Below the pieces are notes generated by a model. That model saw only the letters and a list, made by a program, of their open reading frames with translations, was not told the origin of the DNA and made no database searches. The position numbers and the translations under genes were made by a program. DNA of 64,000 nucleotides from Paramecium tetraurelia (Eukaryota), in the NCBI GenBank assembly GCA_000165425.1, contig CT868017.1, positions 124,001-188,000 on the forward strand. The letters run 5' to 3'. Positions 51,027-56,617 of the stretch are shown piece by piece. The first letter of the stretch is position 1; each line of letters starts with the position of its first letter.

Positions 51027-53040
51027 ATGAACATTCTTGCAATAGGCTTGATTTCTATATCCATTCTCACTTTTGTGATCTATCTAATATGTTATATCCT
51101 CAGTGGGAGTATAGTGATCTCAGTAGCCATTCTTTTACTATGTTTATACAAAATAGCTCACTTGATATGCACATTAATTACATTTCCAGGATCTGTCAAA
51201 TCACTTTACTACAAATTTACCTTGTTGAATCTAAGCGATTATTTTGTAAGTAGAACCTTATAGAATTTGACAATAATCATAAATTCTATGAATCCTCATA
51301 GGTATACACCTCAAACTATTGAAAATGCAATCTAATTTTTGAATATACAATGTAGGTCTCTATAAGAAATGAATAAGAGGAATGACCTACAAAACAAATA
51401 CCATGTCCAATTGAAGCTTTTGAGTGAAGAATTGATGCAAATCCCCAAAAATGAATCACTTGATAAATTATAGACAGAGAAGAAACAGAGAATCACTTCC
51501 TAAAGCAAACAACTACAAATCTTCCTTGAACACTACGCCTACCAAATGTCCAAGCAGAGTATTATTAGAAGATTCTTCTAACATGAATTCCTCTGCACTC
51601 TCGAATAGAGAAGAATTGAAATTTTAATTTAAAATAACAATGTTGAGAGACATCTTCTCAAGAATGCCAGCAGCTAAGAAACTATAGATTGTTTGTTCAT
51701 TAAGCATAATGAAAATGGACCGACAGTGCTCTTTTGTAATCCCAATGCTGGGTATTATGAATACATGTTCTTTGATGTAATACTAGTAATCCTATTTTTG
51801 TTAGTGCGATTGGTTTAGATTTTATGCCTAGATGAAATTCAATATTATTTTATGGAACTACAGAAGTTTTGGAGAAAGCACAGGCAGTATTTCAATAGAA
51901 AACTGTATTGAGGATGGCCGTTACGTTGCTGAATATTTTAGGAGCAAGTAAAAAATCAAAACACTGGGAGCTCATGGTTAATCCTTGGGAGGAATGGTGG
52001 CAGCAGAAGTTGCGTATAAAATGAAGCTTTAATTCCTAATTGTCGATAGAAGCTTTTCCTCATTGGGTCAAGTGGCAGCTGCGATGTAAATAAACAAATC
52101 AAAAGCATTAGGTTCTCCTCTTCGACTGTCAGATTCATTTATAATTGCCTTGTAAGTTGGGATAAACCGAATTATCTGGCTTATTACAAATACGTGGGAC
52201 CAAAATTAATAATTTAAGATCCGAAGGATGAAATACTACCGTATGAATCGTAGTTGCAAACTGCAGTGGTGCGTTGTCACTTTACTGATTAGCCAATAAA
52301 ATACTCGTTCAAGCATTCCTATTTTAATCAAGAATCTACTTGTATATTTGATATCAATTTTAGAATATTTGAAATACTTTTATTCAAAAATATTGTCAAA
52401 GAAACATGTACTTGAATTGTGCACGTCACTTTAATACATTATCAATTTGGCCATCAAGATTAATCAAGCTGAAAATAAATAAGAATCTGATAACAACAAA
52501 CAATATATTGAATTGCAGAATAACGATGATGATCTAGATGCAGCCAAACCTATACTATCATAAGTCTATTCACTTTTTTCATTAATCCATTATTGTGGCA
52601 ATAGTTTATTGGATGTAATGAATAGATAGGCGAATCCAGAGAAGATTGCTTTGTTTTTTGGCAGTTGTTTTGCATTTGATTAACAAGATGACGGTGAGTT
52701 TGAAAAATGCTTCCAGAATTTCGAAGTTAGTTGTACAGAGTTTTTGGAATCCTCTCATTATTACATTAATTGGGGCTAAGTAATTATAGTAATGACATTG
52801 ATTAGATTCGAACTCACATTAGGATAATTAGAGACATCAGTCGAAGTATTATTGGCAAATTCCAACATATCAAACAAAGCAATGATTACTCTCTGGAAAT
52901 GACTGGTTACACCAATGACTCAGATTTGTGCAAGAAGAACATGTTAGGAGAATTGGTTTCAGTTTCATGTGGACACAACAACAATCTAAGCAGAGAAGAT
53001 ACCTATTTAGTATAGAAATTCTTGTTGAAAAATAAACTGA
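51027..53040 (+). CDS. Membrane-anchored alpha/beta hydrolase (ABHD13/16-like)
   Basis: Two N-terminal TM helices; VLFCNPNAGYYE, WNYRSFGES, HGQSLGG, VDRSFSSL, DEILP, CGHN. Confidence 0.85.
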
Positions 53041-53091
53041 GATGATTATATTTATCTTCTATTTTTCATTTAATTATTATTATTCACTTCT

Positions 53092-55326
53092 ATGGTTGAT
53101 ACTCCTTCCGTTCAGTTCCTTGGATATGTGACACCTTAACTTTCATCCCATTACACAATTTTTGAGGAAAAGGATAATGTGCTCATCTACCTCAATTACT
53201 TTGAGATCGATAATTAGATGCTAATTCTGCTGTCTCCCTGTCCAATCGAATATAGTCAATAAAGTAAAATTCATCATCATAATCCCTTTCAGGTTTCATA
53301 GTATTTAGCTCCACAATCCGTCCTCGATACAGAGTTTCTCAGAAACTCATGGTGTCTCTGGACTAATTTAAATCGATAGTGAGCTTCAACATTCTGCTAT
53401 TTGGGGATTTATACTTAACAAACAAAACACAATTCCAGCCTTTCAATGCTCGAAACTTTTAGACTTTTATAAGTCCCAATCCTTTGCCATAAATTAATAT
53501 TTTGGTGGTTCCTGGAGTTTACAGTATTCACTTTGATCAGATATACGAATTCCTGGAAAGCAAATTAGCGTAAAAAAATGAATAGATTTAACCTCAACCT
53601 AAATTTGATATTCTTGTTTACACTACAAATCCTTACAGAGTGTGCAACATTCAATACTAATTTGATAAAACTACTTAATTAATCGATTATTTCTTTTATT
53701 TGATTGACAACCAAATCTATACCGACATAAACGAGATTCAATAGTAATTCATGTTGGAAGACATTAAAGGCACGCTATTCGATTTCTTGTAAGGTAAAAA
53801 TTACCCAAATTCCACACCCAATATTCAATCCATTCGAAAGAACTTCACTTACAATGCTTAGGACACTAAATTCTATATATTGCAACAAATCAAAGGCTTC
53901 AATTAGATTCATTAAAATGCTGATTTTGTGAAGATATGTAATATAATTTACAAATATAAGTTTAGTCTGTCAAAATTGTGAAGATGGAAACAAATGTACT
54001 TTGTTATCCTCTTAGAATCAATAGATTTATTTCGCTGGGTAAAGTTCACTATTTAAATATCCTCTATCTGTCAAATTTTTGGATTTAGTTTCTAGGACAT
54101 TTTCGCAATTGATTTGCCAGTTATTTCTGATAACAAATGCATAGAATGCCACTTATAAAATCAATAGATTGGCCAACCTTGATAGAGTTGAAGAAGCTAT
54201 TTCCTGTCCTTCATTCAATTCTCAAAGAAATTATCAAAATTTAGAAATGCTTGGTGACGTTGTAATTAAGTATTTAACATCTGCAATGTTATTTGAAGAC
54301 TCTAAGTACAAAACTGAAAACACTCTGTCCTCAGCAAGAGTTCGTTTAATCACTAATAAACACTTAAGCTCAATTTATGGAAATCTCAAATTGAATGCAA
54401 TGAATTTTAAAATTAACTCCAAGAAACTTCTAAATCACATGATGATGATTATCAATGAACATGAGGATTCCAAACTATCTCAAAAACAATAAGCAGATAT
54501 ATATGAAGCCTTATGCGGAGCCTGTTACATTAAAAATTATTAATTCAAAGATTTGATGGATTTTTTTAAATTAACAAAGTTAGAATTTTAAGGCACTGTT
54601 CCACAATACTATAAAGGAAACCCTCTTATTGATTTCTCCATTATCTCTCAGGATCCAGGTAAGGATAATGATTATCCTTTAAAAAAATAAATTTTAAAAA
54701 GGCCTTTCTCTGAAACTGTAAAATTTGACCAACCTTTTGAGGAATTTTAAGATTATCTAGGATGCAAATTGAATTTGATTGCCGAAGCTATGACTGTCGA
54801 TTAATTTGAAAGATTAGAGTTCTTTGGAGATGCAATCCTTGAATTATTGGTTATTGTGAATGTCCATAAGGAATGTGAAAAACTATACTACAATCCTAGA
54901 TAACAATAATTATGTCGAGAAGGCAAAATTACTTAAAAATTGTTACTTTGTCCAGGGATGTTGCATACAGCTAAAATATCTTTACTTGACAGTGGATTTA
55001 TGGGTACAATGGCTATCTACCATAATTTCCATTAGTATGCGAGAAACCTTCCAAAGGAGATTTAAAATAGTATAAAAAAAGCCTTAGCATTATTAAGACA
55101 GGATCAATTTACTGATTTTAGGAGAATCAATTAATATTCATAGTAGATTCCAAAAATCATGAGTGATCTATGGGAGAGTGTGGCAGCTTGTATTTTAGTG
55201 GAGTATGGATGGGAAAAGGTGATTGAAATCTATGGAGAAATGTACAAACCCTATATCAAATATTTTGTTGATAACATATCTTTGATTTACGACTTTTGTC
55301 AAAGCACTGGAAATTTAAAATAATGA
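53092..55326 (+). CDS. DCL: Dicer-like protein with two RNase III domains and no helicase
   Basis: RNase IIIa NYQNLEMLGDVVIK...ADIYEALCGA; RNase IIIb FERLEFFGDAILE...PKIMSDLWESVAA; about 730 aa. Confidence 0.9.
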
Positions 55327-55361: not shown

Positions 55362-56617
55362 TCATTTTAATTTTTTCGGCTTTTCTGAAATCCCTGAAAA
55401 ATTGAGTTCGTTTTACATTTAATATAATTTATCCTCCATTCTACCTATTACATTCTAGAATTTATTCAAGAATTCTTCCTAGAACTCTTTCTCTACATTA
55501 TTATGATCCTCTTCATCATCAAAATGGAAGCTACGTTTTTAATGATACTCCTTTGAATTCTATTTCTCTCTTGTGATCTATTGTAATTGATGATTTATCT
55601 TGTTGTTTGTAAAAAATGTTTTAGGAGGTCTTTGCAACATAGGTTATGCATAATTTTGTTAAGTGTGCAAATAAGTTGGAGATGGCTGATTGCATTTATC
55701 TTAGAGCACAGGGGATGTTAAAGGTTATTAATAGATATTTTGATTTAGATTAGGTTGTGAATACAAGGGCTATTGTGGAATTTATGAGATTATTTATTTC
55801 ATTTATTATGGCTGAGTCATCTCATACTAAACATGAACAGGCGTATTATTCAAATGTTAAGCTGAGCATTTATCTCTCTCTATAATCCTTTCATATTGAC
55901 TCAATAGCTCTTTTTATTCCTTTATTACACTTTACAGTTTTTAAACTTCATCTCTATGTTATTCATATAATAAATCATATTTCTGTTTCTCCTCATTAAT
56001 TTTACTCTGCATTATAATATTTCTATTTTTCAATTCAATAAGTTAATCCTCAAATTAAATTTAGTGTTGTTATTTTAGATGCTAAGTATCCTGCTTCTCA
56101 ATCTCATTCAATTTCTCATAAGACTAGATCAGACCACTTTGATTATCAATAATGCCCTATAACTTTTTTATTTCTTCCAATTATGATTACTGCAACTATT
56201 CGATTTATTTAATGCTATCATCTCTTTACTATTTGATATGTAATTCCTTTTATAGATTTTATTATCTGCACTAATCCAATTAATTAGCTAGCTTCTCATT
56301 CTAATCTTTCAAAATCGTAATTTAATCAATTTATTGCTCAATCAAGTATTTGGATTCTGTGCAGTTTCTTTGCAATTACTCATTTTCCTATTGTAGATCT
56401 AACATACAAATGAATGATTACTATAATTTTCATTTTGCAATTAATTAATTGTCTCTGATACTCTCTACACTTCTTCAGCCCATTCCTCTTTTAACAATTA
56501 CTTTTCCTACAATTCTTCACAAGCATCTTTAAGTTATTATTTGAGAGCATTATTCTGTTGCATAAGAATAGCTAGACTTCCTTTGATTTCTTAGTACTTT
56601 ATCTGATAATCACTCAT
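55362..56617 (-). CDS. Hypothetical coiled-coil, Gln-rich protein
   Basis: MSDYQIKYQEIKGSLAILMQQN... heptads with a Q/P-rich tail. Confidence 0.65.

Follow-up and report, generated by a model that had tools for sequence, protein, structure and literature searches.

The gene at 53092..55326 of the window, which is the whole 64,000-nucleotide stretch of Paramecium tetraurelia DNA analyzed here, raises the questions of which Dicer-like protein it encodes, how this protein is built, and what it serves. A sequence-only reading had placed it among the helicase-less Dicer-like proteins used in ciliate genome rearrangement and left the choice of paralog open.

Identity and gene model of the locus

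The coding region starts with an ATG at 53092 and ends with a TGA at 55326 on the plus strand (ciliate code 6). No frame is open from end to end, which rules out a single open reading frame and makes introns necessary. Two GT-AG introns of phase 1, of 29 nt (53264..53292) and 28 nt (53938..53965), separate exon 1 (53092..53263), exon 2 (53293..53937), and exon 3 with the stop codon (53966..55326); the sequence-only reading had not mentioned them. An assembled contig from a run that is probably RNA lacks the same 29 and 28 bases, no junctions of the two introns were found in raw reads at the listing threshold, and the DCL3 paralog carries two phase-1 introns at matching places. The spliced product of 725 aa and 85.0 kDa is identical at 725/725 residues to the database protein CAI39051.1 (GSPATT00032258001; P0012) on scaffold_128. 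The published primer DCL4.TGA.rev of Hoehener et al. (PMC5871716) matches 55298..55326 on the minus strand with 0 mismatches (0 matches in 100 shuffles), and DCL3.TGA.rev matches paralog loci only (2 of 9 loci), including the gene on contig C1. Dcl4 is catalogued as PTET.51.1.P1280115 in a further publication. Based on the primer matches, the identical named protein on scaffold_128, and the P1280115 listing, the gene is P. tetraurelia DCL4, an identification that we regard as virtually certain, and no difference from the known gene was found. DCL4 is already described (it has been named, cloned, and assayed), and finding the gene is not news.

Over the whole length, Dcl4 shares 54% identity and 72% similarity with Dcl3 (GSPATT00027456001), against published values of 51% and 72% (PMC5871716), and the computed 85 kDa fits the 88 kDa published for tagged Dcl4 (PMC5871716). 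A search of the genome (G000) for PF00636 gave 12 matches in total in six genes, which were named by length, motifs, and named records as DCR1 (C667), DCL5 (C666), DCL1 (C291), DCL2 (C125), DCL3 (C1), and DCL4 (C34, in the window). The locations of DCL2, DCL3, and DCL5 rule out these three as the identity of the window gene, and DCR1 is a separate long gene with an open frame of 1813 codons.

The upstream gene (51027-53082) is possibly an alpha/beta hydrolase by a GxSxG motif seen by eye, with no Pfam match on two pieces. Its transcript contig stops at 53082, the DCL4 ATG following 10 bases later, so its 3' end must overlap the promoter or 5' UTR of DCL4. The neighbors between 48207 and 59000 are ordinary (Band 7/prohibitin-like, a stand-alone response-regulator receiver, inositol monophosphatase-like, and actin-related), and a Q-rich coiled-coil-like open reading frame lies at 55362-56405 on the minus strand.

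Catalytic half and domain content

The two RNase III domains noticed from the letters alone are present with all their acidic residues. RNase IIIa (54178..54588, plus strand; Pfam and alignment) carries E366, D370, D450, and E453, and RNase IIIb (54769..55272, plus strand; Pfam PF00636 genome search and alignment) carries E557, D561, D673, and E676. These eight residues are invariant in 15/15 Dcl3/4 sequences and in 6/6 Dcl4 orthologs. The Pfam content of Dcl4 consists of RNase III families only, with two PF00636 stretches; helicase, Dicer_dimer, PAZ, and dsrm gave no Pfam match at E<=0.1, and exons 1 and 2 gave only sub-threshold DUF matches. The N-terminus ahead of RNase IIIa, estimated before at roughly 350 aa, measures ~345 aa, and a motif search of the protein found no DExH or GxGKT motif. 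The lack of an obvious dsRBD noted before also holds, as the 48 residues after the last catalytic motif (DLWES, 673-677 of 725) are too short for one.

Two RNase III domains with four acidic residues each, in the absence of a helicase and DUF283, place Dcl4 in the helicase-less ciliate Dcl family, as the sequence-only reading had rightly said, whereas the helicase, DUF283, and dsRBD that mark a canonical Dicer (Dcr) are missing by Pfam. Dcl1, Dcl2, Dcl5, and Tetrahymena Dcl1p share with Dcl4 the helicase-less plan, the two RNase III domains, and a colinear N-terminus, at identities of about 28% for Dcl1/2 and about 20% for Dcl5 and Tetrahymena Dcl1p. Dcl5 has a dsRBD, unlike Dcl4, and Dcl2 works as a strict 25-nt ruler, also unlike Dcl4. 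As a side observation, Dcl1 of P. tetraurelia (C291, P0182) carries the E-to-Q change in its second RNase III domain that is said to inactivate that domain; the change is present in 1/13 Dcl1/2 sequences, that of P. tetraurelia alone, and other aurelia species may have a catalytically intact Dcl1.

Platform, PAZ-equivalent region, and connector

Lepere et al. described DCL1-4 as two RNase III domains after an extension of ~350 aa without database homology (PMC2647294), and Hoehener et al. already termed the N-terminus a highly diverged PAZ domain (PMC5871716). When 1.84 billion proteins were searched with a Dcl3/4 profile, Dcl1/2 were the only matches that clearly extended into the N-terminus. 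For profile-profile comparison by hhalign, the template was built from the ~380 residues that precede RNase IIIa in helicase-bearing Dicers; of 45 long matches, 30 were kept, a DE[CA]H motif being required and P0036 removed. This template replaced an earlier one made from all 45, which had given a score of 31.7 (E 0.0019) but had Tetrahymena Dcl1p among its members, and one alignment (A5), in which Dicer helicase and DUF283 were set against the Dcl N-terminus, was discarded. The profile of 23 ciliate-type Dcls over residues 1-344, five rows of which are unnamed metagenome proteins presumed to be ciliate Dcls, matched the clean template over 269 columns (Prob 89.9, E 1.7e-6, score 56.5); the controls scored 13.3 (reversed profile) and 14.5 (helicase region), and none of 40 block shuffles exceeded 18.3. 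For Dcl5 by itself, E was 9e-5. The Dcl1-4-only profile matched the same template weakly (score 26.8, E 0.016; shuffle maximum 17.9), and the match of Dcl5 to the Dcl1-4 N-terminal profile was colinear but weak (E 0.08).

The signal comes from two sub-regions. Residues about 25-150 (53164..53570, plus strand) match the Dicer platform at E 2.4e-4 (reversed control E 0.95), and residues 290-343, which correspond to the last PAZ strand and the connector, match at E 2.7e-4; the connector helix itself is placed at residues about 306-343 (54064..54177, plus strand), where a low-confidence model has a long helix at 308-342. Between them, residues about 151-305 (53571..54063, plus strand) form a PAZ-equivalent region with a helical insertion, which is assigned by position: its core taken alone gave no significant hhalign match (E 0.68), and the Pfam PAZ of template protein P0077 (786-881) falls on Dcl4 residues about 155-300, colinear in the long alignment. 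In addition, a single stretch of the Dcl profile, positions 76-704, aligns with Arabidopsis DCL3 (7vg2). The proposal of a hidden platform/PAZ-like module is largely right: a platform and a connector are well supported by the profile comparison, and the PAZ of Dcl4 would be at most a degenerate version. In all, we consider with good confidence that Dcl4 is probably a minimal Dicer composed of a platform, a degenerate PAZ region, a connector helix, and two RNase III domains. The order platform, PAZ region, connector, RNase IIIa, and RNase IIIb would be common to the human, mouse, Arabidopsis DCL3, and Giardia Dicers, from which Dcl4 differs by the lack of helicase, DUF283, and dsRBD, by products without a fixed length, and by a PAZ region that lies beyond Pfam detection and bears a helical insertion and a Cys/His motif.

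Structure prediction, which had been suggested for the N-terminus, gave mixed results. AlphaFold2 with 15 Dcl3/4 sequences produced a mean pLDDT of 54, with values below 50 over most of residues 87-356, and hence no confident three-dimensional model of this part; Foldseek ranked Dicers first for this model, but with an rmsd of about 23 Å over the whole length, and this result was not used for the N-terminus. Between predicted models, the Atlas model of Dcl4 superposes on a 928-aa eukaryotic RNase III cluster with a TM of 0.61 over 539 residues (2-722), a span exceeding the RNase III half (~380 residues). In the Atlas structure search, residues 1-345 alone gave no match above TM 0.3 by query, and the feature search linked them to RNase III/Dicer clusters at scores of 0.76-0.80, short of the 0.9 bar.

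Paramecium Dcl1-5 and Tetrahymena Dcl1p have the helical insertion of the PAZ-equivalent region (at about 185-225 in Dcl4) in common with four helicase-less double-RNase III proteins from metagenomes (P0022, P0023, P0033, and P0034; 791-933 aa), which probably belong to other ciliates as Dcls. In Blepharisma stoltei, P0037 is likewise helicase-less with two RNase III domains and has a weak C-terminal dsrm match, and several matches of 715-780 aa like it may represent an expanded heterotrich Dcl family.

An invariant H-C-C-C motif

In 22 Dcl1-4 sequences, residues 1-343 contain 16 invariant columns, and H264, C274, C277, and C283 account for four of them, in a region with only 2.4% Cys and 1.6% His. 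The motif (53910..53997, plus strand) spans intron 2. It is found in 28/28 Dcl1-4 sequences, Dcl1/2 carrying it as Dcl4 and Dcl3 do, but in 0/8 Dcl5 and not in the single Tetrahymena Dcl1p. The pattern occurs in one of 147 other matches, where it is located inside a helicase, and the four metagenome proteins above are without it. The pLDDT around it in the AlphaFold2 model of Dcl4 is about 30. A zinc site is the simplest reading of the conservation, and metal binding is possible at this candidate site. No description of the motif was found in the literature searched, a set outside which most subscription papers fall.

Origin and conservation of the DCL3/DCL4 pair

When DCL3 and DCL4 arose is dated differently in the two main papers (PMC2647294, PMC5871716), and synteny decides between them. 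The DCL4 neighborhood has a close sister on C55 (74-91% DNA identity) and farther sisters on C1 and C524 (66-82%), the latter two being close sisters of each other (72-89%), and no DCL relic was found on C55 or C524 by tblastn. DCL3 and DCL4 are thereby shown to date from the intermediate whole-genome duplication, each without a recent twin, in agreement with Lepere et al. (PMC2647294), and an origin in the most recent duplication is rejected. This dating is new here and settles the conflict. The sites from which the recent-duplication twins of DCL4 and DCL3 were deleted lie at C55:130162-130638 and at about 280100-281800 of C524, respectively, and the upstream hydrolase-like gene is missing from C55 too.

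In a quick IQ-TREE analysis, Dcl4 of six species and Dcl3 of seven species each form a clade with a support of 100, and P. caudatum and P. multimicronucleatum have single members each in the 15-row Dcl3/4 group, the branching among the two clades and the two single members not being fixed. Dcl4 groups with Dcl3 and these pre-duplication Dcl3/4 proteins at a support of 99. The six Dcl4 orthologs are intact and 81-91% identical, and in matched species pairs Dcl3 shows similar identities for both the N-terminal and the RNase III parts (RNase III half, three species pairs: 84-92% for Dcl4 vs 89-96% for Dcl3). Jenkins et al. counted 21 Dcl3/4 copies out of the 22 expected across 11 aurelia genomes (PMC8059543), and no P. 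sexaurelia Dcl4 was found among 11 matches. Between DCL3 and DCL4, pN is 0.29, with a saturated pS of 0.76.

Divergence of Dcl4 from Dcl3

Dcl4 (six species) and Dcl3 (seven species) differ by fixed residues at 89 positions; with two outgroups only for polarization, 52 are not polarizable, 28 are Dcl4-derived, and 9 are Dcl3-derived (p 0.003). By this count, Dcl4 is the derived copy and Dcl3 the one closer to the ancestral sequence. The Dcl4-derived changes are enriched in RNase IIIa, with 12 changes in 137 residues vs 16 in the 588 residues of the rest of the protein (Fisher p 0.0025, domain borders being approximate), against 0 Dcl3-derived changes in that domain. At S371, H423, and R428, Dcl3 agrees with both outgroups and most Dcl1/2 while Dcl4 differs, as it does at L396; R is the commonest residue at 428 in the other aligned proteins (39/111). 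The RNase IIIa changes are candidate residues for the difference between 5'-UNG and 5'-U specificity. S371, H423, R428, and L396 cannot be sufficient for 5'-UNG, since Dcl2 shares them and makes no 5'-UNG. The literature search found no publication on scnRNA 5' signatures in P. caudatum.

Activity, expression, and role of Dcl4

Dcl4 over-expressed and purified from an early-development lysate cuts random and ND7 dsRNA in vitro into products of broad sizes with a mode of 27-28 nt, prefers a 5'-U, and has no strict size preference; Dcl3 prefers 5'-UNG, and Dcl4 is without the +3 G preference (PMC5871716). Partners may have co-purified with Dcl4 in this assay. A degenerate PAZ would fit the loose product length. 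An N-terminal control of product length becomes less credible given the missing size preference, and the polarizable Dcl3/Dcl4 differences concentrate in RNase IIIa and not in the N-terminus. DCL4 expression is 10.5 in vegetative and 10.3 in autogamous cells (log2), above the 9.3 of vegetative DCL3 (PMC2647294, Table 1). We found sense reads on DCL4 in 2/2 raw mRNA runs at depths of 0.3-4.8, and one small-RNA run had only five reads on the DCL4 stretch, uninformative on function. An index search turned up the stretch in no run recorded as RNA, which was not counted as evidence.

A use in genome rearrangement fails for DCL4, which is published as not induced in autogamy and whose knockdown had no developmental effect (PMC2647294, PMC5871716). 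All DCL combinations were silenced by Lepere et al., with effects only in those including DCL2 or DCL3, and silencing of DCL2 and DCL3 abolished the 25-nt scnRNAs though DCL4 was not targeted; the transgene-silencing passage of the same paper names DCL1-3 and not DCL4, and is thus compatible with a vegetative role of DCL4 (PMC2647294). Dcl3 is meiosis-induced and needed with Dcl2 for scnRNAs, whereas Dcl4 is flat in expression and dispensable. Hoehener et al. termed the function of Dcl4 unknown (PMC5871716), and no small RNA class or phenotype tied to it was found in the literature consulted.

Flat expression, long conservation, and the failure of the scnRNAs to be sustained upon DCL2 and DCL3 silencing make a role outside development, at low and steady expression, the most likely one for Dcl4. 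It would bind dsRNA along the platform, the connector, and the RNase III pair; the two RNase III domains would pair within one chain and cut both strands to leave 2-nt 3' overhangs. This architecture comes from profile comparison, and the cutting was shown in vitro by Hoehener et al. in 2018 (PMC5871716). In vitro, the enzyme favors U at the new 5' end and measures length loosely (PMC5871716), with no firm end-anchored ruler. Since the duplication, DCL3 has stayed nearer to the ancestral sequence and DCL4 has changed mostly in RNase IIIa; DCL3 is induced at meiosis, and DCL4 expression is low and constant. Dcl4 may thus be a non-developmental dsRNA cutter of vegetative cells, outside the scnRNA and iesRNA pathways, that makes a minor class of 5'-U small RNAs or clears dsRNA. 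We lean slightly towards this account as a whole, including the vegetative role in vivo.

The earlier reading corresponds to a Dcl4 that would help Dcl2 and Dcl3 in meiosis as a minor redundant producer of 5'-U scnRNAs. In line with this, Dcl4 is directly paralogous to Dcl3, its catalytic sites are intact, it makes 5'-U products of 25-30 nt in vitro (PMC5871716), and it continues to be expressed in autogamy (PMC2647294); an RNAi knockdown can also be incomplete. We nevertheless consider such a helper unlikely, given the missing induction, the silencing effects confined to combinations with DCL2 or DCL3, the loss of scnRNAs after silencing of these two, and the 5'-UNG borne by scnRNAs, which Dcl4 does not make. 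Less likely still, the gene would be retained not for products of its own but for dosage, or because Dcl4 joins a complex, for example by pairing with Dcl1 or Dcl2 on a single dsRNA. Invariant catalytic residues in all orthologs and the cutting of dsRNA by the purified tagged protein speak for an enzyme in its own right, against a proposed cooperation of Dcl2 and Dcl3 on one duplex (PMC5871716), the flat expression of both DCL1 and DCL4 (PMC2647294), and a high retention of the pair (PMC8059543).

Two further explanations are very improbable. One is an RNase III of Drosha type, or for rRNA/snRNA processing, with structured transcripts as substrates. In its favor, the best whole-model structural neighbor is the oomycete-rich 928-aa RNase III cluster, whose type is unnamed. 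A platform, a connector, and zinc sites also occur in Drosha. The absence of a helicase was likened to Drosha by Lepere et al. (PMC2647294). However, profile ranks against the PDB place Dicers (1e-45 to 1e-41) ahead of Drosha (1e-26) and single-domain RNase III (1e-14), Dcl4 dices random and ND7 dsRNA, and the grouping with Dcl3 at 99 comes from a tree without Drosha; the ranks favor Dicers over the Drosha or rRNA RNase III grouping that the sequence-only reading had named as its counterexample. A shade less probable again is an ongoing loss of this duplicate under relaxed selection, to which the excess of Dcl4-derived fixed changes, the knockdown without phenotype, and the missing P. sexaurelia match would point. 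The Dcl4 changes are fixed across six species and must predate their radiation, the later identities stay close to those of Dcl3, and the paralog pN is 0.29 with a saturated pS of 0.76.

DCL4 is conserved across the sampled aurelia species, and Hoehener et al. left open which residues lie behind the 5'-UNG of Dcl3 and the 5'-U of Dcl4 and how variable lengths are tolerated (PMC5871716). We tentatively suggest that in Dcl1-4 an H-C-C-C zinc module at the C-terminal end of the degenerate PAZ might replace the RNA end-reading surface, that 5'-UNG might be ancestral and read by RNase IIIa, and that Dcl4 might have lost the +3 G through few RNase IIIa changes (ancestral H423, R428, S371, and L396) and taken a vegetative role; this idea is rather doubtful at present. 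The polarized RNase IIIa list and the invariant H-C-C-C motif lead to a short set of swap and mutation tests, and the value of the locus lies in such testable structural leads more than in the gene itself. If the idea is true, the Dcl3/Dcl4 pair would map how a Dicer reads sequence.
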